DNA of 56,094 nucleotides from a virus (taxonomy: Duplodnaviria; Caudoviricetes), in the IMG/VR virus record IMGVR_UViG_3300027499_000663, positions 1 through 56,094 of that record; one strand, given 5' to 3'. Position numbers and translations under genes: made by a program. The notes below the pieces were generated by a model that was not told where the DNA came from, ran no database searches, and saw only the letters and a list, made by a program, of their open reading frames with translations. Shown one piece after another: positions 1,280 through 54,873 of the stretch (position 1 is the stretch's first letter; the number at the start of each line of letters is the position of its first letter).

Positions 1280-2005
1280 TTAGATGGCCATCTCGGCCTG
1301 GGTTTCTCGTTGCCAGATCGGCGAACTGTTGTGCGATTCGATGCGGTCAGCGATGACGTTGGCGCGCTGGCCGGCAGTTGGCGGTGGGTACATCCCGAAT
1401 CGGTTGATGCTTCCGCCGTTGACCGCAGCGTTTGTTGAGTCAGCCGAGGCGAATGGCAGGTGCTGGAAGATGGCAGGATCCAGCATGCGCAGACCGTGAA
1501 GTCGGCATGTGGGCCGCCCCTGGTCGTCGCAGATGACGTCCATCGCTGAACCGATCCGCTTCCACCATGGCGACGTGCCTGGGCTCGCCCATTGGCCGGA
1601 GCTGCCAATTGCCACTGTTGGCCAGTCAGCAGCAAGGCGCGCAAGCCGCTCGAGCGATTCATGCAGATGCCACACCGGCACGCCGCGCAACTCCGCCGGC
1701 CATGCCGCCAACAATGCATCGTTCGCCTCTTCGTCCCCATCAATGACATCGGGAATCAGCGCCCAATCGAAACCCGGGTGCCGATGCCATTGCTCAACCC
1801 ATCGGGTATATCCGTCGACGTCCAGCGTGCCGCCTTTCTTCCACACCGAAAACGCGCCGTTGTCGAAAACGAATGACTGACAGACATCGGCGACAATGCC
1901 CATATCGTCTTGGCGTGGGAACGGTACAAGCGCATGCCGGCCGGCAAGGAACCGGGCGCCGTCTTGCCGCGTGCCGCCGATGGGCGTGCCGTGATAAGCG
2001 ATCAT
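1280..2005 (-). CDS. TGT/DpdA-like transglycosylase-fold protein
   Basis: Ordered TGT-barrel motifs FDNGAFS, IPDVI, VPVWH, VAIGSS, LHGLRM, SADST. Confidence 0.7.
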   Translation of the reverse strand: MIAYHGTPIGGTRQDGARFLAGRHALVPFPRQDDMGIVADVCQSFVFDNGAFSVWKKGGTLDVDGYTRWVEQWHRHPGFDWALIPDVIDGDEEANDALLAAWPAELRGVPVWHLHESLERLARLAADWPTVAIGSSGQWASPGTSPWWKRIGSAMDVICDDQGRPTCRLHGLRMLDPAIFQHLPFASADSTNAAVNGGSINRFGMYPPPTAGQRANVIADRIESHNSSPIWQRETQAEMAI

Positions 2006-3623: not shown

Positions 3624-4406
3624 ATGCGTAATGGTTTATGCGGTTTGTGCGGACAGGCAGGGATCTTAAAGAAAAGTCACCTGCTACCTAAATCAGCGTA
3701 CAAGCAAGTTAGAGATCTGCCCTCAGAAGGTGGAAAATCACCTATGAGGATAGACATGCAGTCGGGAAAATTTGGTAGAACTGATAAGCAGGTGGATGCT
3801 CATCTCCTATGTTCAAAATGCGAGCATCTTTTTTCCAAACATGGAGAAGCGATCGTTGCCAAGCAATGGGGTACCCATCATGAATTTCCTCTGCTTGAAC
3901 GTCTAATGATTATTCGTCCCGCAGAAATTAGCGTTCGCAGACGACTGTTTGTTCCCAACCAGCTTCCCGACGAGTTGAGTTTAGCCCTCTACTACTTCGC
4001 AGTCAGCGTATTCTGGCGCGCCTTAGAATGGCCGGTCCCGGCGCCGGGCTTAAAAAGCTGTAAGGGGGCTTGCACTGGGGCGCAGCTAGAAAAGCTGAGG
4101 AGGTTTCTCTTGAATCCGCAGGGGTACATAGAGGGTTTATTGCTAGTGGCGGACGTTAACACTCAGCCAGAAATGAACGGGATTATGTCGCTACCAGCGC
4201 TAATGAGTCTGCCAAACATTAACAGTATGCAGTTTGACCTTTTGGGTATTAGATTCATGATGTTTGTTGGTGAGAGCCTCCCTGAAGAGCTAGAATTCTT
4301 ACAGGGGAGGCTAAACCGCAACTTCATTATTGTGATGTCTGATCACTCCGGAAGTAATTCGGCGAAGCAAGTCGCTAAATTTTTGCACGACAATGATATT
4401 GATTGA
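3624..4406 (+). CDS. Moron: zinc-binding HNH-like protein
   Basis: CGLC, SHLLPK and LLCSKCE motifs; AT-richer than flanks; antisense to the operon. Confidence 0.65.
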   Translation: MRNGLCGLCGQAGILKKSHLLPKSAYKQVRDLPSEGGKSPMRIDMQSGKFGRTDKQVDAHLLCSKCEHLFSKHGEAIVAKQWGTHHEFPLLERLMIIRPAEISVRRRLFVPNQLPDELSLALYYFAVSVFWRALEWPVPAPGLKSCKGACTGAQLEKLRRFLLNPQGYIEGLLLVADVNTQPEMNGIMSLPALMSLPNINSMQFDLLGIRFMMFVGESLPEELEFLQGRLNRNFIIVMSDHSGSNSAKQVAKFLHDNDID

Positions 4407-4457
4407 AGTTCAGTGATTCCGTTGCCGACCAGTCTAGTGTAAACATTGTGGCGGTCC

Positions 4458-6614
4458 TCATGCGGCCACCGCTTCGCGCTGTCTTACCTTCCATGGATCA
4501 TTCGCCCTGGCCAGTGCTGCCATCGGTGGCGGGCTGACGCTGTTGCCGCACATGTGGACCTGCTGGGTCTTGGTGAACGGCTTGCCGTCGGCGCCGTGGC
4601 TGATGATGTAGTCGGTGGGAAAACCCTGGGCTTTGTACAACTCGGCCGGTTGCAGCATCCGCAGGCAGATGTCGACGATAACGTAGGGCGTGCCCTTGAT
4701 GGTGACGGTTACCAGGCCCAAGCGATCCTTGGTGGTGATCGTGGGGGCTGGCTCGTCGGCGCCGCTCACGTTCTCGGTGCCGTAATAGCTGATCAGGAAT
4801 GCCGCGACCCTCAGTGCGCCTTCCTCATGCTCCGGAGAAAGCGTGTACTCAAGCAGCGCGTGGTGCTCGGCACTGGCCGTCAGCGTCGGCACCGTCTCGT
4901 CCATGCCTCGGCCGATGCAGTTCTTCCGGAGCGTGGTCAGGTGCGCCGAGCAAATAGCGTGGTGCTGCCCGGTAGTGACCGTTGGTACCGGGTTTCTGAG
5001 GTCTGTGGCCGCGTGGCCGGTTGTGTTGCTGATCAGCGTCGCCGTCACCAGCTGCTGCTGGCTGCCGGTGTTGGTCACCGTGGTCATCGGGTCTTCGATG
5101 CTCTTCGCGTCGGTAGTGTTGAACCCTCCATTCATCTGGGCCATGAAAACCGTCGAGATACCCATGGCGTGGGCGGCGCCGGCCGGGCGCTGGTAGGTGC
5201 CACCGCTGGTGATGGTCGGCAGCGGCTCGTCGATCGCCTTGCCTTCGTCCGAAAACCGAAACTTGACCAGGTGCGCCGAAGCTATCGCGCGGTGGTTCTG
5301 GGTCATCAGCGTTCCCGCGGGTTGATCCACGGATGCTGGCTTGCCAGAGTACTCGGGCCCACCGGTGCCGACCAAGACAGCACTTGTGAGCGCATGCTTC
5401 ACACCGCCTGCTACCACTGTGCCAAGCGGCTGGTCCAGGCCAGGCACGCGCGGCTCTTGCCCGGCGCGCTCGCCGTATCCGGTTTGAATCAGGGTCGGGC
5501 TGATCAGCGTCAGTTCACCCCGGTTGGCGCACGTAACAGTCGGCAGTGGTTCGTGCGGGTCGTTAATGCGATCGCTGCCCTGGTGCGTGGCTGGCGCGAT
5601 GATCGGGCTGGCCACGGCAAACGAACCACCGCGCGGCCAAGACGTTACGGTGCGCAGTGGTTCCTGCGCAGACTGGACGCTTTCACCGGACCAGTTCGCG
5701 ATCGGCACAATAAACGGATCGGCCGCATCGATGACGAATTTCTTCATGCCCTTGGCAATTCGGCGAAGCGTGGCTGGTGCCAGCGGCTTCGGCCTGTCGA
5801 AAATGCTTTTGCTCGGGATCGTCCAGTCGATGCATTCGGCGGCGGTGCGCCACTTCTTCTGTCCTTTGGCCGGGTGCTTGGCGTGGGTCGGCGCAGGCCA
5901 AACGATAGGCTGGCCGTCGCAGCGGGCGATCATGAACAGTCGCTCACGGCTGGTCGGCGCGCCGAAGTCGCATGCCTTGATGACCCGCCACTCAACGACA
6001 TAGCCCAGGCGCTGCAGCTCGGCGACGAACACGGCCCAGGTCTGCCCACGGCGTTTCGGGTCAGGCACCAGGAACTGCTGGTGAACCGATACCACTTCGC
6101 CAGGTTCAGCAACACCGCCGCCCAGCTTCACAACCCGGCCGGTTGCCTTGTCGCGCTTGGCAATCAGCGGCCCCCATTGGAGGATCTGCTTCACGTTCTC
6201 CAGGCTGATGACACGGGGCTTCTTCTTGCCTGCCCACTTTAGGCCGATCCACGACAGGTTCCGGATCTCCCGCTTGCGCGGTTGGCCCCCGGCGGCCTGG
6301 CTGTGATGCGTGCAGTCCGGCGACATGTGGAACCAACCAACGGCTTTGCCGCCGCACTCGGTATCCGGATCCCCATCGAACACGTCGGTGGTGTAGTGCA
6401 CCGCGCCAGGGTGATTGACGGTGTGCATGCTGATCGCCTGAGGGCTGTGGTTCTTCGCGACATTCACCGCGCGGCCCAGGCCCATCTCAAGCCCGGTACC
6501 GGCGCCACCACCACCGCAGAAGAAGTCGACAACGATTTCATCGTCCTGAGTGCTGAAGCCGAGTCCGTATTGAGTTTTGAAATCGAAGGGGTGTTTCTTC
6601 TGTTGTGCGGACAT
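4458..6614 (-). CDS. DNA (cytosine-5) methyltransferase with a long repeat-rich variable region
   Basis: DFFCGGGG (motif I), SPDC (IV), ENV (VI), RER (VIII), CGNSV (X). Confidence 0.92.
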   Translation of the reverse strand: MSAQQKKHPFDFKTQYGLGFSTQDDEIVVDFFCGGGGAGTGLEMGLGRAVNVAKNHSPQAISMHTVNHPGAVHYTTDVFDGDPDTECGGKAVGWFHMSPDCTHHSQAAGGQPRKREIRNLSWIGLKWAGKKKPRVISLENVKQILQWGPLIAKRDKATGRVVKLGGGVAEPGEVVSVHQQFLVPDPKRRGQTWAVFVAELQRLGYVVEWRVIKACDFGAPTSRERLFMIARCDGQPIVWPAPTHAKHPAKGQKKWRTAAECIDWTIPSKSIFDRPKPLAPATLRRIAKGMKKFVIDAADPFIVPIANWSGESVQSAQEPLRTVTSWPRGGSFAVASPIIAPATHQGSDRINDPHEPLPTVTCANRGELTLISPTLIQTGYGERAGQEPRVPGLDQPLGTVVAGGVKHALTSAVLVGTGGPEYSGKPASVDQPAGTLMTQNHRAIASAHLVKFRFSDEGKAIDEPLPTITSGGTYQRPAGAAHAMGISTVFMAQMNGGFNTTDAKSIEDPMTTVTNTGSQQQLVTATLISNTTGHAATDLRNPVPTVTTGQHHAICSAHLTTLRKNCIGRGMDETVPTLTASAEHHALLEYTLSPEHEEGALRVAAFLISYYGTENVSGADEPAPTITTKDRLGLVTVTIKGTPYVIVDICLRMLQPAELYKAQGFPTDYIISHGADGKPFTKTQQVHMCGNSVSPPPMAALARANDPWKVRQREAVAA

Positions 6615-12505: not shown

Positions 12506-13021
12506 CTAGTCGGAAAACTTTATTTCAGTAGAAAGGGCCTGTCTGGAAATCTCATAAGCGGACTGTGCTTGGGTATCCGCAGTACTGAATGTGCTCATAG
12601 TCAAAAGGTAGGCATTCCACTTCGTATACAAGTCTTTACTTAGCTCAGCCTGCTTTGCTGGGGGCTTAGCTGTCTTGAGGCGGGCGACGGCTTGGTCGCC
12701 CTCCGAGCGAGCGTGCTTGATGCAGGTTAAGAATGAATCCCCGTATTCCTGAGCTCTCTGTCTTGCACCGATTCGCCGCATTTGAAATCCAGAAGATGCT
12801 TCAAGCCCGCACTGCCACGCAGCCAAGTCTAACTGGCGTGAAAAGTTCATGGCTTCGGGAGATTTTGAGTCATATTTAAATTCGATGGGCTTGAATACGT
12901 GAGGCTCAATCTTTTCCACTGGAACGGTAGGTTGAACTGCTTGTGTTGTTGCGGGTGGAGTAGCGCAACCAGACAGCGCCGAAACGGCAAAAATAGCGAC
13001 GGCAAAGTAACTTAACTTCAA
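12506..13021 (-). CDS. Lipoprotein in the immunity region
   Basis: Signal peptide with LSGC lipobox; TTG start after GGGAGG. Confidence 0.7.
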   Translation of the reverse strand: MKLSYFAVAIFAVSALSGCATPPATTQAVQPTVPVEKIEPHVFKPIEFKYDSKSPEAMNFSRQLDLAAWQCGLEASSGFQMRRIGARQRAQEYGDSFLTCIKHARSEGDQAVARLKTAKPPAKQAELSKDLYTKWNAYLLTMSTFSTADTQAQSAYEISRQALSTEIKFSD

Positions 13022-13153
13022 GGTGGATCCCTCCCATGATTGAGGCCACGACTTTACCATTCGTGGCGCACAGCCACCATTGATCTGAAGGTACAGAGGG
13101 ATGTTCTGGGCGCCATGATACGGTGAACTCCACTACGCAAAGGAGCGCCTGCA

Positions 13154-13309
13154 ATGAAGCTACCCGAAAGCTACAAGGTCAATGGCTACACCGTAATGAA
13201 GGTGGGCGACGGCTGGGAGGTGGCGAATAGCGATGACCACCTGGGTGGCCCGTTCGATCGTGAAGAGGACGCAGTAGAGGCCGCAAAGGCGTTGCCGCCG
13301 AAGGGGTAG
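13154..13309 (+). CDS. 51-aa small protein MKLPESYKV...AVEAAKALPPKG
   Basis: AGGAG SD; below the ORF-track length cutoff. Confidence 0.6.
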   Translation: MKLPESYKVNGYTVMKVGDGWEVANSDDHLGGPFDREEDAVEAAKALPPKG

Positions 13310-13424
13310 GGAAGGCCAGAAAAGAAAAGTCCGACGCTAGGCCGGGCTCTCTGTAGATGGGCCAAATACCTTTGACCGGCTTCACTGGTGGGTGTAACGA
13401 ATGAATACTCATGATGTGAAGGAT

Positions 13425-13814
13425 CTAAGTTTCGGATGAAGGCGGGCTGATGGGGGTGATTTGATATCCGGTCGCTTTACCATGATCATCGCGCACTGTC
13501 TGCAAGGATGCTTGGAGCCTCTCCATCCGCACACGGGTAGCGGCTTTAAAGTCATCTGACGCCATTTTGTCGGCCAGGTCAGCTTTACAGATCTTGATTG
13601 ATGCCTTCAAGTCCGCGATCTTCCTGGTTAACTCCGCCGGATCATCCGTACGAATGTAAACCTTCAGTAGCCAGATAGAAATGTATGGGCTTAACAGCCC
13701 GGTTATAGCCATTAGCACCTGCGTGGCTCCGGCACTATCAGCAAGGGGGGCAAGTACAATTGCCAGTGCATTCAGAAGGCTAGTTGCAAGAGCCATGAAC
13801 ATGTTGTTTTTCAT
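13425..13814 (-). CDS. Two-TM plus coiled-coil protein (operon gene 3)
   Basis: Two hydrophobic helices then a heptad-like tail; overlaps the upstream stop. Confidence 0.75.
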   Translation of the reverse strand: MKNNMFMALATSLLNALAIVLAPLADSAGATQVLMAITGLLSPYISIWLLKVYIRTDDPAELTRKIADLKASIKICKADLADKMASDDFKAATRVRMERLQASLQTVRDDHGKATGYQITPISPPSSET

Positions 13815-14077
13815 AGGCTACCACCTAACATCTTAGCGTCGACCTCGGAGATCCTTTTAAGGGTTCTTTTTCTTAAAAATGATCCGCTCAATAGATAGCT
13901 TTCAGTTTTCTCATCTTCCGTTTTATATTGGATTATTACTTCGCGCGGAAAAATTGAATAAGATATGTGCCGTACTACCTTTCTGGTAAATATGAAAATC
14001 AGTGGAAATCCACAAATTAATACGCCCCATCCAAGTGCTTGCGCTATAAGCTCACCAGTCCACATCTGTGCCTCCAT
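13811..14077 (-). CDS. Single-TM small protein (operon gene 2)
   Basis: ALGWGVLICGFPLIFIF followed by basic residues; AT-rich. Confidence 0.7.
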   Translation of the reverse strand: MEAQMWTGELIAQALGWGVLICGFPLIFIFTRKVVRHISYSIFPREVIIQYKTEDEKTESYLLSGSFLRKRTLKRISEVDAKMLGGSL

Positions 14078-14093
14078 TCCGGATCGTTAGCTG

Positions 14094-14945
14094 TTAGCCG
14101 GAGACTTTTAATATAGCATAAGATGTTCTTGTTCCACTAAGGTCTGTTACATCTTTCTTTTGTATTTCAACATTGTATGATTTGTCTTTTTGAAAGGCTT
14201 CTTCGTTGGCAGCGATTTTCTGCATGAACTCATCATCTAGAATAGTTACAGCAGCCTCAAAGCCGTCTTCACTTGCAATGCTCCATCCCCGACGACCTTT
14301 AAAGTTTAGCTTGGTAAATTTAATGATTTTTAGTATTGTTGTTGTTTCAATTTTTTCCGTAAGATCAGTTTTTAGCGGCTTGAAATTCGCTATTTCAGGT
14401 TCTTGAAGGGTGACGATGGAATCTGATGAGATAAAAGATATCTTAGGATTATCCTTCCCTTGCATTGGCCCTTGGATCACAGCATGTAGAGCCTGTCGCA
14501 CTTCTTTGCTAGATATAAGTTGAGCAACATCGCTACTGGTTTCAATTTCCTCTCCATCGACCGTTACAATGGCCGTTTTTTCTTGAGCGTTAATAAATAC
14601 GCGATCTATTTTTTTGTCTTTGATGCGATCTATGATTCCAATCGCTGAGCCAGATGCTGCAAACGCTGCGCCACCAATAATTCCAATAGATTTTAGTACG
14701 GTAACGGTCGTCAACGGGTCGGCAAATATGGAGTAAATAATCTCCAATGAGCCCTCGACCGCTGGCGCTACTACACTAAGGCTTGCTTCTGATGAACCAT
14801 TGCTAACAATTTTTGCAGATTTTGTTATTAGGTCATCCATGCCGATTATTGCAGCTCCAAGATCCTTTGCCTTAATCTGGTGGTGCTCCAAATCGCCGGT
14901 GGCGTCATAAGAGATTTTAAACTCTGTTACAATTTTATCGCTCAC
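14094..14945 (-). CDS. Hypothetical 283-aa protein (operon gene 1)
   Basis: GTG start after GGGGAG; AT-rich; central glycine-rich hydrophobic segment. Confidence 0.8.
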   Translation of the reverse strand: MSDKIVTEFKISYDATGDLEHHQIKAKDLGAAIIGMDDLITKSAKIVSNGSSEASLSVVAPAVEGSLEIIYSIFADPLTTVTVLKSIGIIGGAAFAASGSAIGIIDRIKDKKIDRVFINAQEKTAIVTVDGEEIETSSDVAQLISSKEVRQALHAVIQGPMQGKDNPKISFISSDSIVTLQEPEIANFKPLKTDLTEKIETTTILKIIKFTKLNFKGRRGWSIASEDGFEAAVTILDDEFMQKIAANEEAFQKDKSYNVEIQKKDVTDLSGTRTSYAILKVSG

Positions 14946-15101
14946 AAAAAAAACTCCCCATATTTAAAAGTGGTGGGAGGGGCGGCAACTACATCAATGG
15001 CCATCCCTGCCAATTATCATGTTTTATACGAAACCGTTTGTTATCGGGCTAAATAAATAAGCTCTATTCATTTATTATCCACCCTTGAGTGGACGATCCG
15101 C

Positions 15102-15314
15102 TCATTTCTTAATGTCTTCCGCATATCCCGCCAACTCGTCCTCATACTCCTTAAAACGGGCTGTGATCTTCAGAAAATCTTGGGCGTCAGCATCTTGCCC
15201 GGTTTCAGAAAATTTTCCGGCCGCCTGCATTAGATCGACGCCTGACCATTTGAGCAGGTCGGCGGCTTGTTTCAGCTCACACCGCATCTCTTGGTCGGGC
15301 TTGGTGAGGGGCAT
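15102..15314 (-). CDS. Small helical hypothetical protein downstream of cI
   Basis: ORF from MPLTKPDQ, 16 bp after the cI stop. Confidence 0.65.
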   Translation of the reverse strand: MPLTKPDQEMRCELKQAADLLKWSGVDLMQAAGKFSETGQDADAQDFLKITARFKEYEDELAGYAEDIKK

Positions 15315-15330
15315 CTTCGATTCCAAAGGG

Positions 15331-15984
15331 TCAAAACTTCTGAAGTGCCCGGACGACAACACCAACGATCCGGCAATCCTCGGTGAACGGTTCAATTCGC
15401 CAGGCTGGATTCAGCGGTTTCAGGAAGAGTTTCCCGCCGTCATTGACCAGCTTCTTGAAGGTCGCCTCATTGCTATCCGGCAGTTTGGCGATCACTAGCT
15501 TGCCTGGGGTCGCCTCGGATTCTGTATCCACCAGGATCAGCGTGCCTTCTGTGATGCTTTGCCCGACAGGCGAGGTCATCGAATCCCCTTTGACCTCTAG
15601 CCAAAACGCTGGGCCCTTCGAGTCGTATTCGGAGAATTCGTAGCGATCGGAAAAGCCGGCCGGGTAGGGCTCGACTGCCTCGGCCCAGGCGCCCGCGGCG
15701 ACCCAGCTGATAACCGGATAGCGGAAAGACTCTACTGGCTGCCGGGCTTCGCCGACATTTGATTCTGAGGCTTCACGCTCACCTCCCTCGCCGATCGCAA
15801 GCCATTCAGGTCTGAACCCGGTCGCTTTTGCCAGTGCGTAAAGGTTCTCGGGCCGAAGGCTTTTGCTTTCCCCCGAAATCCATTGAGTGACGGCCGAATT
15901 TGCGACGCCGCAAAGCGCCGCGATTTCGCCTTTCTTTTTCCCGCTGAGCTTGATGGCTCGTGCAATACGTTCGTGTCTTTCCAT
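15331..15984 (-). CDS. cI: CI-like repressor (HTH plus S24 autopeptidase)
   Basis: N-terminal HTH; VAAG cleavage site; GDSM serine and TFKK lysine motifs. Confidence 0.95.
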   Translation of the reverse strand: MERHERIARAIKLSGKKKGEIAALCGVANSAVTQWISGESKSLRPENLYALAKATGFRPEWLAIGEGGEREASESNVGEARQPVESFRYPVISWVAAGAWAEAVEPYPAGFSDRYEFSEYDSKGPAFWLEVKGDSMTSPVGQSITEGTLILVDTESEATPGKLVIAKLPDSNEATFKKLVNDGGKLFLKPLNPAWRIEPFTEDCRIVGVVVRALQKF

Positions 15985-16093: not shown

Positions 16094-16273
16094 ATGAATA
16101 CGCATGAAGTCGCCCAATTCTTCGGCAACAAAACAAAGCTGGCACTGGCGCTGGGCATCCGTCCGAGCGCAGTGACCATGTGGGGGGAAACCATTCCCGA
16201 ATCCCGTCAGTACCAAATTCAAGTCCTTTCCAAGGGCAAGTTCAAGGCGATCAAAAAAGAGCAGGCCGCCTAA
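16094..16273 (+). CDS. cro: Cro-like repressor (59 aa)
   Basis: MNTHEVAQFFGNKTKLALALGIRPSAVTMWGETIPESRQYQIQ; divergent from cI; not in the ORF track. Confidence 0.9.
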   Translation: MNTHEVAQFFGNKTKLALALGIRPSAVTMWGETIPESRQYQIQVLSKGKFKAIKKEQAA

Positions 16274-16568: not shown

Positions 16569-16991
16569 ATGGAAGATTTTCTGCGGGCCTGCCAAAGCGC
16601 TGTTCTGGATAACGAGGCCAAAGCACTGGCGGCAAAGATGGGCGTTGCGCACGTTGGCCTGCTCCAGCGTGCCAATCCCGACAACGATGCTCACCACCTG
16701 ACCGTGGAGCACTTGTTCGGGATCTTGCTGCACACCCGTGACATGCGGCCTCTGGCAGCGCTCGCAAATGAATTCGGTTTCGACCTGGTCGCCAAGTCTG
16801 CTCCCCAGCCTCAGGCGCTCACCAAATCGCTGATCAATGTCGGCAAGGAAGTGGCTGATTTGACTATCGCCGTGCACGAAGCGCTCGGCGACGACCATGT
16901 CAGCACCTTCGAAAAATCCTTGATTCGCCAAGAGATCAACCATGTCCGGCAAAGCCTGGACGTGATGGATGCATCGGTGAAGGCCGCCTGA
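16569..16991 (+). CDS. CII-like phage regulatory protein
   Basis: LAAKMG...ANPDND.HHLT motif; position after cro. Confidence 0.75.
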   Translation: MEDFLRACQSAVLDNEAKALAAKMGVAHVGLLQRANPDNDAHHLTVEHLFGILLHTRDMRPLAALANEFGFDLVAKSAPQPQALTKSLINVGKEVADLTIAVHEALGDDHVSTFEKSLIRQEINHVRQSLDVMDASVKAA

Positions 16992-30140: not shown

Positions 30141-30656
30141 TTAACAGTCTTTCCTGAGGGCAGCAATTTCCGATAGATATTGTTGAAATTTTTGGCTCCA
30201 CTTCTGATTCGTTGCATCAAAGGTGTCCAGCTGTTTCTTAACTTCTTCGTCGCCATTCGCAGTCATGCTGTTTTTCAGCTCAATAACCATGTTTTGGCTC
30301 AGCGTTGACAATTCAGAGGGCGCGTACGCACTGAAAGCGTACCCCGTCCTCATGAGTGCATCCAAGCGGTCTCGGTATACATCTAGGGAAACCTTTAGAT
30401 GTCCGGTTTGAGCGGTGAACTCGCCAAGTGCGCTAAGGAATTTATCTGCCTTTTCCCGCAGGTCTTTTTCTTGGGCATCCAGCCGCGTTATGCATGTCTG
30501 AGTTTTGGTGATTTTCGATGATTGCGAGGCGGTTACCCAACCTATAACGCCCGTGCTCATGACACCAGCAAGAGTTAGGAAACCGGTGAGAGCTGATATC
30601 AAAAGAGCATTTGTTAGTTCGAGTTTTTTTGAGGCTTGGTTGGCGTCCGTCGTCAT
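30141..30656 (-). CDS. Moron: membrane-anchored helical protein
   Basis: N-terminal TM; GGAGG SD; antisense within the head operon. Confidence 0.7.
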   Translation of the reverse strand: MTTDANQASKKLELTNALLISALTGFLTLAGVMSTGVIGWVTASQSSKITKTQTCITRLDAQEKDLREKADKFLSALGEFTAQTGHLKVSLDVYRDRLDALMRTGYAFSAYAPSELSTLSQNMVIELKNSMTANGDEEVKKQLDTFDATNQKWSQKFQQYLSEIAALRKDC

Positions 30657-30766
30657 AGATCCTCCAGTGTGCGCGCTAAATTAAACGGCGCGCATTGTCA
30701 TCCTTTCCTCAGTTCAAATCCATATCAGCAGGCAGGGCCTGCACCTACGTCTCTGGGAGACAACCA

Positions 30767-31474
30767 ATGCTGAAATTCCAACTGGATACCCTGGAAGGGG
30801 TAGATGAAGCCGTGCGCGCTCTTTACACCGAGAAGGACGGCAAATTCGTACTCGGCATTGAAGGTTTGCCGCAGCAAGAAGACGTATCTGGCCTGAAGGC
30901 CAAAGTTGATGAATTGCTCGGCGAGAAGAAGCTGGCCGAGAAGAAAGCGCGTGAGGCTGAAGAAGCTGCACGCCTGGAGCGTGAAGAAGCCGCTCGCAAA
31001 TCTGGAAACGTCGAAGAGCTCGAAAAGTCCTGGTCCGAAAAATACAACCGCCGCGAAGCTGAGCTGAACGGCACGCTGGAGCAGGAGCGCGCCGCGCTGA
31101 GCGGGCAGATCCGGGATCTGACTGTCGGCCGTACCGCTACTGATATCGCGTCTGCCTTGGCAATTCCAGGCAGCGCCAAAGCCCTGTTGCCGCACATCGA
31201 ACGCCGCCTTGGTGTCGAGCAGCGCGACGGGAAGCCTGTGGTGGTTGTACTCGACCCGCAGGGCAAGCTCTCGGCGGCAACGCTGGATGAGCTGAAAGCA
31301 GAATTCGCAAACGACACGGCGTTCGCGCCGTTGATCGCGGGTAGCAAGGCATCGGGCGGCGGGGCTGCTGGTGCTGGAGGTGGCGGCGGGGCCGCAAAAG
31401 GAAAAATCGGCGGCACCAAAGAGGAACGCACGGCCGCAATCGCGAGCCGGTTCCCGGATCTCCCTCAATCGTAA
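30767..31474 (+). CDS. Capsid scaffolding protein
   Basis: Coiled coil with Gly-rich C-terminus, before the capsid gene. Confidence 0.8.
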   Translation: MLKFQLDTLEGVDEAVRALYTEKDGKFVLGIEGLPQQEDVSGLKAKVDELLGEKKLAEKKAREAEEAARLEREEAARKSGNVEELEKSWSEKYNRREAELNGTLEQERAALSGQIRDLTVGRTATDIASALAIPGSAKALLPHIERRLGVEQRDGKPVVVVLDPQGKLSAATLDELKAEFANDTAFAPLIAGSKASGGGAAGAGGGGGAAKGKIGGTKEERTAAIASRFPDLPQS

Positions 31475-31484
31475 GGAATAACTC

Positions 31485-32453
31485 ATGTCCCTGTCGCAAA
31501 TGCAGGTCTTCAACGAATACATCATGCCGGCGACTCTCGAGACGCTGGACCAGTATCTCGCCGCTTTCAACGCCGCAAGCCGCGGTGCAATCGTGCTTTC
31601 GCCGGATGGCTTCACAGGCGACTTCCTTCAAGAGTCGTTCTTCCAGACCCTGGCCGCTGCCCAGCGCCGCGTGGATCGCTACAGCGCAAACGCTACTGTC
31701 GCAGCGACCGACCTGACCGAGCTGAAGAACACTTCGGTGAAGGTAGCCGGCGGCTTCGGTCCGATCCGCTACGAGCCATCGCAGATGACCTGGCTGGAGC
31801 GCCCCACCGCGCAGGGCGTCGAAGTGGCGAGCCGCGCGTTCGCGGAGATCCTGCTCAAGGATCAGCTCAACACTGCAATCGCTGCACTGGTCGCCGCGAT
31901 TACCGCCCAGGCCGCCGCTGTCAACGACGTGTCGGCTACCGCCGGCATCACCTACGCCGGCCTGAACAACGCCCATGCGAAGTTCGGCGACGCGAGCCAG
32001 AACCTGGTCACCCAGGTGATGCAGGGCACCAGCTACCACAAATTGGTTGGTCAGAACCTGGCAAACCAGCAGCAACTGTTCCAGGCGGGCAACGTTCGCG
32101 TCGTGGACATCCTCGGCAAAATCTCGGTTGTGACGGACGCGCCGGCGCTGATGCAGTCCGGCACCCCGAACAAGGAGATCATCCTGTCCTTGGTGCAGGG
32201 CGCGGCGCTGGTGCACGACGGTCGCGACATCATCAGCAATGTCCAGACCACCAACGGCAAGGAGCGTATCGAAACCACGCTCCAGACCGACTACACCTTC
32301 GGCCTGGGCCTGAAGGGCTACACCTGGGACACCACCACCGGCGGCAAGTCGCCAACCGACGCCGAACTGGCAACCGGTACCAACTGGGACAAGACCGCCA
32401 CCAGCATCAAGCACACCGCCGGTGTGGCTCTGATCGGTGACGCCTCCAAGTAA
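31485..32453 (+). CDS. Major capsid protein
   Basis: 322 aa; GLKGYTWD...SPT...NW...KHTAGV C-terminus; strongly biased codons. Confidence 0.9.
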   Translation: MSLSQMQVFNEYIMPATLETLDQYLAAFNAASRGAIVLSPDGFTGDFLQESFFQTLAAAQRRVDRYSANATVAATDLTELKNTSVKVAGGFGPIRYEPSQMTWLERPTAQGVEVASRAFAEILLKDQLNTAIAALVAAITAQAAAVNDVSATAGITYAGLNNAHAKFGDASQNLVTQVMQGTSYHKLVGQNLANQQQLFQAGNVRVVDILGKISVVTDAPALMQSGTPNKEIILSLVQGAALVHDGRDIISNVQTTNGKERIETTLQTDYTFGLGLKGYTWDTTTGGKSPTDAELATGTNWDKTATSIKHTAGVALIGDASK

Positions 32454-32504
32454 CCCCATGATGTCCAAGCCGGGACGTGTGCCCGGCTTGGCGGAGATGC
32501 AATC

Positions 32505-33083
32505 ATGAGCAACAAAATCTGGTATCTGCCCGGACCGTTTCACCAGTACCGGGAAGACGTGAAGGCGCTGGCAAAGGCACACGGCCTGCGAATCATCGAT
32601 GCGAACATCACTGAAAGTCGCGAAGGAGAGGCCGATGATGTGCCGGAGGTGACGGTGCGGCAGTTTGAATCGGCACCGGCGCTGGTGCTCGCCGATAAAG
32701 GTAATCACGGTGCGCTGCAGGAGCTGATCGACAAGTTGAACGCCGAACGCGACGGAATCGTGCTGCTGATCGACGCTGCTGAAGGCCTTGCGCCGTTGGA
32801 ACACCCGGGCGCCGGCGAGCTGCCGATCCGCCTGTTCGATGCGTTGAAAGCCATCCACGAGGGTGTCATCTCCCTTACCGATCAGCGCGACAAGCTGGCG
32901 GGTGAGGCTGAATTGCTCCGGGCTGAAATCGCGCGCCTGAAGGCGGCAGCGGAGCAGCCGGTCGACAACGCCGAGAAGATCACTGCACTCAAAGCGCAAC
33001 TCGACGCCGCCAATGTGCAATATCGAGCGAATGCTTCGGTAGAATCGCTGGAAAAGGCAGTAGCTGATCTGCCAAAGGCGTAA
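32505..33083 (+). CDS. Head-associated hypothetical protein with HeH/LEM-like C-terminus
   Basis: LKAQLDAANVQYRANAS...L motif. Confidence 0.6.
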   Translation: MSNKIWYLPGPFHQYREDVKALAKAHGLRIIDANITESREGEADDVPEVTVRQFESAPALVLADKGNHGALQELIDKLNAERDGIVLLIDAAEGLAPLEHPGAGELPIRLFDALKAIHEGVISLTDQRDKLAGEAELLRAEIARLKAAAEQPVDNAEKITALKAQLDAANVQYRANASVESLEKAVADLPKA

Positions 33084-51214: not shown

Positions 51215-53110
51215 TTAGCGAGTCCATTGACGGTAACTCCCAAACACCGCTTCATGCCATTCATTGGTTAAGCCTAGTCCATGACGAACCACTTCCGGCG
51301 GACATTGCACGGCAGCGACGACTTCGGTTAGGCCCCGCCACAACTCAGCCGCTCGAACGGATCCGAGTTTGGAGAAATCGCAAGTTACGAGGGCCATCCC
51401 AGCCGCCCCCCGTAAGACTCCTTCTTCATTGCGACCAGCATTGGAGAAGATCATCTCAGTATCGACCGGACGGGTCACAATAAATCTGATGTCGGGGCGC
51501 AATAACCCAAGAATGGTCACAATCCTATAGTCGGCTAGCATTACAGCCCCCGTCGCGGTGTTTGCCGCGATCTGCTGAGCTGCCGCTAGATCTTGCGGTG
51601 GGAACTTAAGGCCCGGCTCGGCGACCACCGTGCTATTCAGTGCTGGCACCTTCGCCAACACTGTGCCCGCAACCAGCATACAGGCGACGATTACAGCACA
51701 CACACGGCGGCTTCCTGGAATGGAAGCCCACCGATACAGAGCCGCGGTCGCTAGCCCGGCCCAGAGCGGCACCACAAATGCGTACGCCAGGCGCCAATAG
51801 GCGCCCGGGGTCACGATACGCATGAGAACATCGCGAACCCCCGGCGACGTTATTAGAAGGACACACACCAGCAAATAGGCAAAGAGCCCTCGGGTTTGCG
51901 GGTTCCTTCGGCCCAGGAAGATCGCAGTAGCTAGCAGAGCCAAATCCAAAAGAATGCTTGGTCGATCGAACACCAGAGCAAGGCTATCCAAATAGGAAAT
52001 TGGCCAGCCGCCTGTCTGGTAGAAAGAGATGTTTCCAAGCTTCGGGAGCAAGCCGATCCACGGCAATATTGCCACCAGCGCCGGCAACAACAAGACGGAA
52101 GCTACTGCGAGCATTCTTTTGCCTGAGTTTCGTGACATGCCAAGGGCGAGCCAAGCGCCGACGCTCGCAACCCCAATCACGAATGGCATCAAGAATAGTG
52201 CCGTACCACTGAGGCCTATGCCAGCCACGCTCACGGCATGCAAGCGCACAAAGTCAGAGCTTCGCCCGAACTGCACAAAGCGCATGCCGAACAGCAACCC
52301 CAGGGGGACCATTAGTTCTATGAGAGCGCACTTACCTTGCCAACTTCGTAAGACCGTGAAGTTTCCCCAATCACGATGGCTGTTGCCACTCAGCAAGAAA
52401 GCGATCAAGACCACCAGAGTTCCTGATATGGCTGCCGGCATAGGCACTCTACAGAAGCGCAGCAACAGGAAATATACTAGTGGCAGCATGAAGTTAACGA
52501 GCGTCCCGATGCCTTGATGAACTGCCAAAATTTGAGGAATATGTAGGATACGTGCCATCAGAGCCGTGGTCACTTCGAAGGACGTGAAGACGTGCAACGG
52601 CGTCAGCGGCGGAAGGCCAGCCACCTCGTGGGCTGTGTCGCCCAATGCGAAGGGCTGGTCGAGTGAGATCGAAGCGACAATCGCGCGATGCGAAAAAGCC
52701 ATATCGTCGCTGTCTGGCCGGTTGGTAAACGTGCTGACTGTTGCCGAGAGCAAACAAAGCGAGAGCAACAAAAAGCTCCAACGCCCATATCCAGAGATGC
52801 GCCAATCAAGTTTTCCCATTCTTAGCGAAATCAAAGCTGCAACGGCCAAAGCCAAGCATGCCGGGAACCAAACTTTTCCTGGGAGACGTAAAAGGAGCAC
52901 CGCCCAGTAAGCGATGCTAGCCACGACAGCCCACGTCAACATCAGATCGACTGCAAGAGCCGCAGTCCTTTCCGGGTGGGATGCATTTACGGTACGGTTT
53001 ATCTGGCTAGGATTAAAGCGGTTCGTTGAACGGAATTGGGGCAAAGTCACGATAATCTTGGGGCCTTCGAGTCGTTTTATTTGGACCTGTGGAAATTCGA
53101 AACGGATCAT
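51215..53110 (-). CDS. Polytopic membrane protein, probable GT-C fold glycosyltransferase (DUF6077-like)
   Basis: More than ten TM segments; DSDD loop after the first helices; WQGK motif. Confidence 0.6.
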   Translation of the reverse strand: MIRFEFPQVQIKRLEGPKIIVTLPQFRSTNRFNPSQINRTVNASHPERTAALAVDLMLTWAVVASIAYWAVLLLRLPGKVWFPACLALAVAALISLRMGKLDWRISGYGRWSFLLLSLCLLSATVSTFTNRPDSDDMAFSHRAIVASISLDQPFALGDTAHEVAGLPPLTPLHVFTSFEVTTALMARILHIPQILAVHQGIGTLVNFMLPLVYFLLLRFCRVPMPAAISGTLVVLIAFLLSGNSHRDWGNFTVLRSWQGKCALIELMVPLGLLFGMRFVQFGRSSDFVRLHAVSVAGIGLSGTALFLMPFVIGVASVGAWLALGMSRNSGKRMLAVASVLLLPALVAILPWIGLLPKLGNISFYQTGGWPISYLDSLALVFDRPSILLDLALLATAIFLGRRNPQTRGLFAYLLVCVLLITSPGVRDVLMRIVTPGAYWRLAYAFVVPLWAGLATAALYRWASIPGSRRVCAVIVACMLVAGTVLAKVPALNSTVVAEPGLKFPPQDLAAAQQIAANTATGAVMLADYRIVTILGLLRPDIRFIVTRPVDTEMIFSNAGRNEEGVLRGAAGMALVTCDFSKLGSVRAAELWRGLTEVVAAVQCPPEVVRHGLGLTNEWHEAVFGSYRQWTR

Positions 53111-53316
53111 GTCGCAACATGATTGTTAAAGCTTCGTCATTTATCTACTCGAACAAACTACTTACATAGTTTATCACAGGATGCCCATCGAATTCTTGTT
53201 TATAGGCAGGGCGTCGATCATGGAATCCTAAGATAAGTTTGCCGGATAATTCCTATGCCCTTATGAAGTACGCTCAGGAACATGAATCCCAATATCAGCT
53301 TTTAAGCCGATTGCTG

Positions 53317-53526
53317 TCACTCCGGTGTCATCATCACCGCAAGCGTCATCTTGATGAACACCTCATTTCGGTCGATCGCGACCAGGGCGCCCCGGACGTT
53401 CTCGGCGATCTCGACACCGCCGCGAGACTCAACCCAGTTTGAAAGCTCCATGATGGCGGTCTCGAGGGCCAGCTGGTTTTCGTTGATTTTGAACAGCAGG
53501 GAAGGGAGCAGATCGGAATGTGGCAT
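53317..53526 (-). CDS. Small hypothetical protein (copy 1)
   Basis: MPHSDLLPSLLFKINENQLALE; near-identical copy at 55034. Confidence 0.7.
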   Translation of the reverse strand: MPHSDLLPSLLFKINENQLALETAIMELSNWVESRGGVEIAENVRGALVAIDRNEVFIKMTLAVMMTPE

Positions 53527-53856
53527 CGCGAATCCTCTGACTTGAGGTCAAGCGTAGCACTGCATAGAAAGGATGTTTAACGGTCGGCAGGACGCCGAAA
53601 GGAGGGGAGAGACCTGTCTAAAACTACCTCGGCCTTACTTGGTTTCATTGGCCCGAAAAGCGCCTATGTCGGGATAGAGTTTTAGACGGTCGTCAATGCA
53701 TACCATTGGAATAGAAGCCCCGCCGGCCATTTCCAAAAGTACTGCTGCATCAGTGGTGCATTATTGGGCGGAGGGCAAGCAACGCCGGCGACTTTGGCGT
53801 CGACGCCGCAAGCGTGAGTCTGATGAATGGACAATTGAGCCGTTCACTGGCTGAGC

Positions 53857-54873
53857 TCAAGCCTTGGCAGTTTCCATGGAGCGTTTGCGGAAGCTCCGCG
53901 CATAACTTAACGCGGGCTTCTCAAAACAGAACCACGACAGGGTTGCGAGTAGCACCGTTACACACGCGGCGGCAGCCATGGATGGATAGAACCCTAAGCC
54001 GGTACAGTTGATCAGCAATTGCTGGACTGGGAAAGCGTATAGGTAGAGGCCGTACGAGATGTCAAATCGACCACGGATGATCGGGTCGTTGAGCATGGTC
54101 CCGAGCGCGAGCGTGAAGAGGCTGAAGCCGATGCTGGAGAGCATCAAAGGCGCGGGGCCGACGACGGAGACACCGATCAGTACCACCCCCAGCCCGGCCA
54201 TAATAGTTTTCGAGCGCAAGCTACCCAGCAGGCTCTGGTGGAACGCCAGTGTTGATCCGACGAAGAACGCAATGCACACAGACGTGTAAATACCGACCTT
54301 GCCCGCAATGGGGTGGTCTACCGATATGCTGACGATGTGCAGCGCGCAGAAGCCTATAAGGACGAGCAATGGTACCAAAGACTTAATCGACAAGCTCAAT
54401 GCCAGTGCAACCAGGACATAGCAGCCGAATTCAAATTTAAGCGTCCACAGGCTTCCGTTTAACGACTCCTGAAAAATAAACCCTTCTGTTACTGCTTCTA
54501 TGTTTGCCCGGCCAAACGCCGCTATCTGGAGAAATTTCTGCAGCGCTTCACCGCTGCGTGCTGTGACTAAAATGCCGTCTCCGCTGAAAAAGCCACCTAT
54601 CAGGTACACCATTACGAATGAGCAAACGATGAGAGCCGGGAATATCCTGGCGATCCGGTTGACCGCGTAGACCTTCAGAGAGGTCCGCGTGAAGCTTTGG
54701 GTTATGAGGTACCCCGAGATGGCAAAGAACGCGATGACTGCAAACCCTCCCAAGGAATTGACTCCGTGGAATGCGGGCTCAGTTTTGCCGGACAGAACGA
54801 AATGGTGGCTGATTAGAACCATCAGCGCGGCGATATGCCTGATCAAATCAAATGCATTGTTGCGACTCAGCAT
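53857..54873 (-). CDS. Acyltransferase-3 family protein (OafA/Oac-like O-antigen acetylase)
   Basis: FDLIR..AALMVLISH, FFAISGYLI, RIARIFP, NGSLWTL..E, DISYGLYLY motifs. Confidence 0.9.
   Translation of the reverse strand: MLSRNNAFDLIRHIAALMVLISHHFVLSGKTEPAFHGVNSLGGFAVIAFFAISGYLITQSFTRTSLKVYAVNRIARIFPALIVCSFVMVYLIGGFFSGDGILVTARSGEALQKFLQIAAFGRANIEAVTEGFIFQESLNGSLWTLKFEFGCYVLVALALSLSIKSLVPLLVLIGFCALHIVSISVDHPIAGKVGIYTSVCIAFFVGSTLAFHQSLLGSLRSKTIMAGLGVVLIGVSVVGPAPLMLSSIGFSLFTLALGTMLNDPIIRGRFDISYGLYLYAFPVQQLLINCTGLGFYPSMAAAACVTVLLATLSWFCFEKPALSYARSFRKRSMETAKA

Follow-up and report, generated by a model that had tools for sequence, protein, structure and literature searches.

A three-gene operon behind the immunity repressor of a Pseudomonas-type provirus as a probable proteobacterial variant of the MichelleMyBell gp29/gp30 defence

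This work deals with three adjacent open reading frames (ORFs), here named g1, g2 and g3, at positions 13425-14945 of the IMG/VR provirus record IMGVR_UViG_3300027499_000663, whose 56,094 bases are hereafter called the window. The three lie on the minus strand, downstream of a cI-type immunity repressor gene, and the interpretation that we favour, and hold to be probable, is that they form an abortive-infection-type defence operon expressed by the lysogen, a three-gene proteobacterial variant of the kind represented by gp29/gp30 of the mycobacteriophage MichelleMyBell. An earlier sequence-only reading of the same DNA, which gave these coordinates correctly, had seen here a candidate new anti-phage system that it could not recognise. 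The module is indeed real, and its homology with a tested system speaks for an anti-phage role of the abortive-infection type, but it is not an unnamed one.

The MichelleMyBell and Phrann prophages each cut the plating of phage Tweety by 4-5 orders of magnitude, an effect which Tweety gp54 counters (PMC8549241), and the MichelleMyBell system, known to DefenseFinder as MMB_gp29_gp30, is described as an abortive-infection system that lets adsorption and injection go ahead (PMC6426606). In the passages of a 2025 paper that bear on it, gp29 is called toxic and gp30 a putative membrane protein, and the mechanism of the pair is given as unknown (PMC11856565). MichelleMyBell gp29 is 310 amino acids (aa) long, and gp30 (67 aa) overlaps its end.

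Judged by sequence comparison, g1 (14094-14945, minus strand, 283 aa from a GTG start) is a full-length remote homologue of gp29, and the different methods are consistent on this point. A profile of 47 distant g1 relatives (A4) was compared by hhalign with gp29 itself, to which it aligns in 272 columns (Prob 98.9, E 1.7e-17), and with A5, a profile built from 23 homologues of gp29 in actinobacteria, to which it aligns in 276 (Prob 99.5, E 9e-23). Two unrelated window proteins of similar length, taken as controls, gave Prob 0.1 with E 0.55 and 0.61. BLASTP of g1 against gp29 finds the C-terminal domain (E 9e-4), with W221, D237 and F240 aligned. Among viral structure models searched with Foldseek, Pipsqueaks A0A142K7V1 comes third, with E 5.5e-7 and an rmsd of 1.6 for 87 columns, and the 184-aa gp31 of Pipsqueaks is 99% identical to part of gp29. 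A distant homologue of g1 in Vibrio phage 10N.286.45.F8_PE001 was itself annotated by its depositor as "MMB_gp29_gp30__gp29", and is followed there by genes of 83 aa and 161 aa and by an integrase.

The same link is drawn by a model of third parties. The PADLOC entry PDC-S42 (PDLC05015) matches g1 at 5.5e-29 with 99.6 bits, the alignment pairing residues 7-281 with positions 4-286 of the 302 in the model, and it matches gp29 itself at 1.6e-16. The sequence-only reading had proposed that a search of PADLOC without a hit would speak for novelty; with this match the novelty test fails, and the genes can no longer be regarded as an unrecognised system. The PDC entries are, however, untested candidates, obtained by 'guilt by embedding' (PMC10855318), and PADLOC treats PDC-S42 as a single-gene system (class 'S'), whereas g1 is accompanied by g2 and g3 in every complete close locus. 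g1 also belongs to phrog_3243, of unknown function (1.7e-54), and to NCBIfam NF053583, which it matches in residues 9-281 with 180.7 bits, the cut-off being 60. Its match to the Pfam domain DUF7946 (PF25678; 0.002, residues 9-73) reaches 18.6 bits and stays below the cut-off of 27, PF25678 being present in the precomputed annotation of 24 of the 63 g1 homologues listed; a nearby Protein Atlas cluster carrying DUF7946 and DUF7947 (score 0.89) is a lead only, and the other Protein Atlas neighbours of g1 are unnamed clusters. A match of g1 to a holin PHROG (0.04) was taken as chance. Among the paper texts found, supplementary tables not being covered, none names "PDC-S42", "DUF7946" or "LAPAL motif", the last being the phrase that NF053583 carries in its name.

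The family so defined is large. Its profile retrieves 1376 clusters (defined at 50% identity) from a library of 1.84 billion proteins at E <=1e-3, and 535 at 1e-10; nearly all of the best 150 of the 1376 are ~285-310 aa long and match from end to end. The significance of the connection between PDC-S42 and gp29 is, in the first place, that it gives a widespread but untested candidate family a tested relative, and in the second that it extends the gp29 family to prophages of Pseudomonas, Vibrio and Proteus and to Pseudomonas megaplasmids.

If g1-g3 are compared with the MichelleMyBell system as a whole, the two are alike in the similar size and full-length, though remote, homology of their large proteins, in the C-terminal W, D and F residues conserved in both, in a moderately hydrophobic segment rich in Gly and Ala near residue 90, in the gene of a small membrane protein placed directly after the large gene, and in their setting, a variable region of a prophage close to the repressor or the integrase. 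They differ in the partners, of which the window has two, g2 with one transmembrane (TM) helix and 84 aa and g3 with two TM helices, a hairpin and 129 aa, whereas MichelleMyBell has one, gp30, with two hydrophobic stretches; and they differ in the host, actinobacterial for MichelleMyBell and a Gram-negative proteobacterium for the module of the window.

How far the three-gene form extends can be seen in 14 distant loci, from which near-copies (L032, L036-L038, L040, L041, L045-L048) had been left out. Ten of the 13 non-mycobacterial ones (L025 from Vibrio, L026 from a megaplasmid, L027 from Proteus, and L029, L034, L035, L039, L042, L043 and L044) carry an ORF of ~80 aa with an N-terminal hydrophobic helix and then an overlapping ORF of 123-198 aa, the latter meeting the hydrophobicity threshold in nine of the ten. 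Relatives with such triads match PDC-S42 at 1e-24 to 1e-34. The clade nearest to the model (L030, L031 and L033, of which L031 matches at 8.3e-103) is without partners resembling g2 and g3: L031 is flanked by a lipoprotein-like gene and a DUF2846 gene, L030 by nothing clear, and in L033 the gp29-like gene is followed by one for a 136-aa membrane protein (positions 4359-4769 of that locus, plus strand), in which Imm_superinfect (PF14373, 6.1e-14) is fused to a zinc ribbon, and which is either a different membrane partner or a neighbouring exclusion gene. Since the companions are thus a triad's pair, an Imm-like or lipoprotein-like gene or none that is clear, or a single gp30, depending on the clade, it is the large protein that stays constant and the membrane partners that change. 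In prophages, distant members follow a repressor, adjoin an integrase or precede lysis genes; the L026 triad (NZ_MF344571.1 227252-228828; 308, 84 and 139 aa) stands beside IS26/IS6100 and tet(C), and triads of its type occur on a family of Pseudomonas megaplasmids of 370-500 kb, with matches in 34 records of the plasmid collection, 30 of them from Pseudomonas. For most proteobacterial clades this makes the functional unit a set of three genes, which detection rules built on one gene miss.

Among close relatives the three genes are inherited together. Scans with a g1 alignment found four loci in genomes and 19 in viral contigs, 23 in all, which become 19 when near-duplicates (L007, L011, L015, L017) are removed. 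With the single g1 protein as query, the scan of genome contigs found no locus where the alignment found the four. Neither g1 nor the operon had a match at 1e-5 among 50,697 phage records searched by tblastn and blastn. By tblastn, g2 follows directly downstream of g1 in 20/23 loci and g3 in 21/23, the exceptions being L021, which ends within g1, L024, without matches to either, and L005, without a match to g2. The layout is kept even so: all 22 loci that extend past g1, among them L024 and the Halomonas locus L005, have two further ORFs on the same strand, the first of 83-93 aa and the second of 125-136 aa (in L015 the latter is only 100 aa, being cut by the locus end), and their overlap is 4 bases in 20 of the 22. 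When the scan was started from a g3 alignment instead, 16 viral contigs were found, and every one of them was already on the g1 list. The co-occurrence of the three genes in other genomes, which the sequence-only reading had proposed to check, is in this way confirmed from both ends.

Selection acts on all three. In the pairs where synonymous divergence (dS) is unsaturated, the ratio of nonsynonymous to synonymous divergence (dN/dS) is 0.017 for g1 (one of nine pairs), 0.071-0.088 for g2 (four of nine) and 0.045 for g3 (one of nine); in the remaining pairs dS is saturated and dN is 0.04-0.42. g1, g2 and g3 are real, selected genes inherited together, and not chance ORFs. Their composition sets them apart, with a guanine and cytosine (GC) content of 0.377-0.44 in 300-base steps across 13750-15099 versus 0.55-0.60 in the flanks and ~0.58-0.60 for the phage, in agreement with the AT-richness relative to the phage core noted earlier; at third codon positions it is 0.35 in g1, 0.37 in g2 and 0.55 in g3, the least deviant. 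The ORF of g2 as listed runs from 14077 to 13811 (minus strand, 88 aa), 16 bp from g1, as had been described; but the 17 aligned homologues all begin with MW, and a GGAGG stands 5 nucleotides 5' of the second ATG, at 14065, so that g2 is more likely an 84-aa protein encoded at 13811-14065, with a gap of 28 bp to g1. The overlap of g2 and g3 described with it stands unchanged: g3 (13425-13814, minus strand, 129 aa) starts within the stop of g2, the two sharing the 4 bp ATGA.

The ORF at 15331-15984 (minus strand, 217 aa) combines a helix-turn-helix (HTH) domain (HTH_3, 1.1e-7) with Peptidase_S24 (9.6e-27), and matches the transcriptional repressor family phrog_4 at 7.5e-51; it is the cI-type repressor, it lies on the same strand as g1-g3, as had been stated, and it is likely to be the gene from which transcription in the lysogen reaches the module, whose position and strand are compatible with read-through from cI. 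Of the 19 non-redundant close loci, 12 have a co-oriented repressor of the HTH+S24 type immediately upstream. Just one of the twelve (that of L008, 61%) resembles the cI of the window, so the cassette has landed behind different immunity repressors. Elsewhere the upstream neighbour is a small HTH gene (L023) or a pair of HTH and WYL genes (L019). L005 has the module in a P2-like prophage, with a TraR-type gene on one side and the integrase on the other; in L003 it occupies a chromosome spot together with HipA, Bro-N and type IV restriction-like HNH proteins, and in L004 it lies next to DUF6119. In contigs from other samples, cI is 90-95% alike and the DNA becomes unlike exactly from the cI stop (window positions 15329-15333), which fits a variable cargo slot behind this gene. 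A database protein of 179 aa (P0115) consists of the C-terminal part of an S24 repressor followed by the N-terminal part of a g1 relative; probably the result of a read-through gene call, it is another sign that repressor and g1 genes abut.

The products of g2 and g3 are predicted membrane proteins, and neither has a credible family in Pfam, PHROGs, NCBIfam or PADLOC. g2 has a single N-terminal hydrophobic helix (residues 9-32 of the 88-aa ORF, hydropathy KD19 2.0), past which lies a soluble domain of ~50 aa. In g3 two hydrophobic helices, the first with KD19 2.03, precede a conserved 'IRxDDPxELTR' motif and a helical hairpin; the AlphaFold2 (AF2) model has helices at 2-24, 28-56, 60-81 and 87-114, with a pLDDT of 76.4 overall and ~90 in the hairpin. 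Two TM helices and a coiled coil had been proposed for g3, and of these the hydrophobic helices are found, whilst the remainder is modelled as a helical hairpin rather than as one long coil. According to the positive-inside rule, the topology of membrane proteins follows the distribution of their positive charges. In g2 there are 0-1 K/R residues before the helix and 2-4 after it in all 17 homologues, and in g3 there are 3-4 just after helix 2 in 16 of 17, which suggests that the soluble parts of both face the cytoplasm and would thus share the compartment of g1. Hydropathy, AF2 helices and charge distribution therefore agree with the earlier picture of one cytoplasmic protein and two small membrane proteins. 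Weak similarities of g2 to a PADLOC cyclase (0.02), and of g3 to DUF2939, DUF7269 and a scaffold protein (0.04-0.2), were taken as chance, and a Protein Atlas neighbour of g3 labelled "low affinity iron permease" (0.90), which has no backing from Pfam, as a lead only.

g1 itself is cytoplasmic and has no signal peptide. The motifs which the sequence-only reading had quoted from it are all present, and most are invariant columns of the alignment of 20 g1 sequences from the close Pseudomonas clade (A1), in which H22-x-I24-x-A26-x-x-L29, E64-G-S-L67, W221, I235/D237/F240 and F251 are among the invariant positions. The AF2 model (pLDDT 83.1, pTM 0.73) shows an N-terminal alpha/beta domain made of residues ~1-75 and 113-175, with weak matches to ferredoxin-like and ABM folds (Z 5-5.8). 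Residues ~77-108, in which Gly, Ala, Ser and Thr abound, form a helical segment inserted into this domain, and the C-terminus (~198-283) is an OB-like barrel that carries the invariant W221, D237 and F240. The inserted segment contains the hydrophobic stretch GIIGGAAFAASGSAIGII (residues 88-105); its KD19 peak is 1.85, with 1.6-2.1 at the same position in 20 of 22 homologues from related loci, and a milder Gly/Ala-rich segment is present across the distant relatives and the gp29 family. A classical TM helix is nevertheless unlikely here, because AF2 puts the flanking strands in one domain and because the segment of distant homologues is shorter and less hydrophobic. The barrel matches SSB, RPA and PriB with VIA-align Z scores of 5-6.6 and Foldseek E values of 3e-3 to 7e-3; VIA-align itself warns that Z scores in this range are common, and "OB-like" is for this reason a description and not a function. 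Against the sequences of the PDB, the profile of the g1 family gave a single chance match (E 0.49).

The placing of the module at the position equivalent to rexAB, as the earlier reading had it, holds, with one small gene between it and cI, and invites a comparison with RexAB and with Sbash gp30/gp31. In these systems, too, the genes lie downstream of cI and co-oriented with it, and a soluble protein of ~280 aa goes together with one or more small membrane proteins, for which a membrane-acting abortive infection has been proposed (PMC6426596). But RexB and Sbash gp31 are described as having four TM helices in one protein (PMC6426596), whereas the window has three helices distributed over two, and g1 lacks DUF4747, the domain of RexA and Sbash gp30: with E allowed to rise to 1, the search of Pfam with g1 returned only DUF7946 (at the 0.002 given above) and one chance match. 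g1-g3 are not a member of the RexAB family by this analysis, and could be called Rex-like at most in position and logic.

Several observations weigh against the defence reading. The homology to gp29 is remote, with an identity of 16-18% in profile alignments, and the profile of the close clade (A1) reaches only Prob 91.5 (E 8.7e-7) with A5, so that the function of g1 can differ from that of gp29. g2 and g3 have no detectable similarity to gp30 (profile comparisons give E 0.39 and 0.087, Prob <1); the partners are analogous and not demonstrably homologous to it, which is why we file the operon as a variant and not as a member of the gp29/gp30 system. Among 50 flanking or other proteins PADLOC matches only two, the type IV restriction-like HNH protein of L003 and the WYL protein of L019. 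The stretch of the three genes is present only in the likely source sample; reads from four runs of other samples, one of them RNA, cover cI only, so the sole RNA run with coverage spans the repressor gene alone and not g1-g3. The fold matches of g1 are modest (Z <7), and the OB-like domain is near neutral, with a charge of +1 in g1 and of -1 to +6 in 20 homologues. Nucleic-acid binding by this domain, which the earlier reading had suggested together with the OB-like fold, is not supported by such a charge, and only the fold, weakly, remains of that suggestion. NF053583, finally, is named 'LAPAL motif-containing putative phage structural protein', although the word 'structural' is not supported by the gene context in the window.

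If the defence interpretation is correct, the sequence of events could be the following. An AT-rich cassette would have been acquired into the slot downstream of the immunity repressor, and in the lysogen the operon would be transcribed with cI or just after it. The translationally coupled g2 and g3 would form a complex in the inner membrane, their cytoplasmic domains restraining g1. When a heterotypic phage infects, the injection of its DNA would be normal, and a phage product or a replication intermediate would be recognised, probably by the W/D/F face of the OB-like domain of g1. Membrane function would then be damaged, either through g2/g3 or through insertion of the Gly/Ala-rich hydrophobic hairpin of g1, and the growth of the phage would be aborted. 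The roles of sensor and effector may be reversed between g1 and g2/g3, since it is gp29 that is called the toxic component in the passages cited (PMC11856565).

It is tempting to go one step further, in a speculation which we regard as doubtful, though worth stating. The gp29-like/PDC-S42 superfamily, with its 1376 clusters in Actinobacteria and Proteobacteria, might be a common chassis combining sensor and toxin, and a new class of membrane-acting abortive infection, to which interchangeable partners are added: a two-TM gp30, the pair g2 and g3, or an Imm-like, a lipoprotein or no partner. The hairpin of g1 would kill once the OB-like domain binds the trigger of the phage, and g2 and g3 would be the safety catch and not the effectors. 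A Gram-negative variant such as the present one offers a genetically easy host in which both the phage sensing of the family and its effect on the cell could be studied.

The toxicity ascribed to gp29 (PMC11856565) also lends itself to another explanation, namely that the module is an addiction or stabilisation cassette of the toxin-antitoxin (TA) type, in which g1 is a toxin held by g2/g3 and which persists by killing upon its loss, or by stabilising the prophage or plasmid, with no real protection from phages. The copy on a Pseudomonas megaplasmid beside IS26/IS6100 and the chromosomal spot by HipA (L003) are in line with it, and tight, translationally coupled genes are typical of TA pairs. 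We consider it unlikely as it stands, given that the MichelleMyBell relative does defend, with the drop of 4-5 logs seen for Tweety (PMC8549241), and that most copies (the 12 of 19 above) occupy the slot that follows a repressor and is expressed in the lysogen. TA-like traits are common among defence systems, however, and for this reason the cassette explanation overlaps with the defence reading more than it excludes it.

The predicted location of two of the three products in the inner membrane raises the question of whether the module could act there by superinfection exclusion, blocking the entry of phage DNA in the manner of T4 Imm, P22 SieA and HK97 gp15, so that the infected cell is not killed. 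The Imm_superinfect protein that follows the gp29-like gene of L033 would suit such a role, and genes next to cI are in a typical place for exclusion genes. On the other hand, g1, the largest and best-conserved part of the module, is a cytoplasmic protein without a signal peptide, which an entry blocker would not need, and the MichelleMyBell system is reported to allow adsorption and DNA injection (PMC6426606). This makes exclusion quite unlikely in our view. That g1 is a structural or morphogenetic protein of the phage, and g2 and g3 unrelated small membrane genes, is suggested by the name of NF053583, whose cut-off g1 far exceeds, and by a family found mostly in prophages, but is very improbable, as g1 lies in the immunity region, on the strand of the repressor and ~10 kb from the head and tail genes (25.5-50 kb), is linked to g2/g3 and not to structural genes, has a composition foreign to the phage core, and has relatives on a megaplasmid and in non-prophage chromosome spots and a mycobacteriophage homologue that is a defence gene.

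The surroundings of the operon are those of a lambdoid siphovirus of Pseudomonas type, as judged by gene order and by matches to PHROGs and Pfam. From the left, the window has the integrase, a leftward early region, and cI on the minus strand opposing the divergent Cro-like (16094-16273, plus strand) and CII-like (16569-16991, plus strand) genes; to the right of the latter follow an O-like replication gene, NinG and a Q-like gene, then holin, terminase, portal and capsid, and after the capsid the tape measure, a J-like tail tip, fibres, endolysin and spanin. The capsid gene, for a Gp13-like major capsid protein, occupies 31485-32453 of the plus strand, and a 627-aa minus-strand ORF over the same DNA (31137-33020) was rejected as spurious.

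Between cI and g1 lies a gene of 70 aa (15102-15314, minus strand) that belongs to phrog_6388, of unknown function (4.2e-16, residues 1-69), and has no match in Pfam or PADLOC; its ATG stands 17 bases past the cI stop, its GC content is normal, and a palindromic hairpin (15086-15104) is found at its stop. As this gene is real, g1 is not the first gene after cI in the window, and the two probably belong to the same leftward transcript. The AT-rich intergenic region 5' of g1 (14946-15101, minus strand, GC 0.40-0.45), which ends with GGGGAG-T8-GTG, may carry a putative promoter of the module's own, although a consensus scan found no promoter-like site in it. The same kind of scan found a terminator-like hairpin with a T-rich tail ~80 bases past the g3 stop (13331-13345, minus strand), a possible end of the operon, but a weak one, because the five such sites of the region are no more than shuffled sequence yields (4.2).

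Other parts of the window hold further candidates for cargo. Beyond the end of the operon, a 51-aa ORF on the plus strand (13154-13309) converges with it and matches DUF2188 below threshold (8e-4, 20 bits versus a cut-off of 22). Further 3' of g3, a minus-strand ORF of 184 aa (12506-13060, GC ~0.50) has an N-terminus of the lipoprotein type (…AVSALSGC…) and matches nothing credible among the families of Pfam, PHROGs, NCBIfam and PADLOC. Perhaps it is a second moron, for lysogenic conversion or exclusion. Two minus-strand ORFs within 30141-30971 (171 aa and 85 aa; third-position GC 0.51 and 0.37), between the head-morphogenesis and capsid genes and without a family match, look like another inserted moron. 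In the early-left region there is a 718-aa DNA methyltransferase (4458-6614, minus strand), and a queuine tRNA-ribosyltransferase-like gene (1280-2005, minus strand; phrog_887, 1e-69) adjoins the integrase. At the right end, past the lysis genes, the minus-strand genes at 51215-54873 encode a DUF6077 protein of 631 aa and one resembling O-acetyltransferases (phrog_3333, 5.3e-40), and may be cargo for the modification of surface polysaccharides, that is, for serotype conversion.

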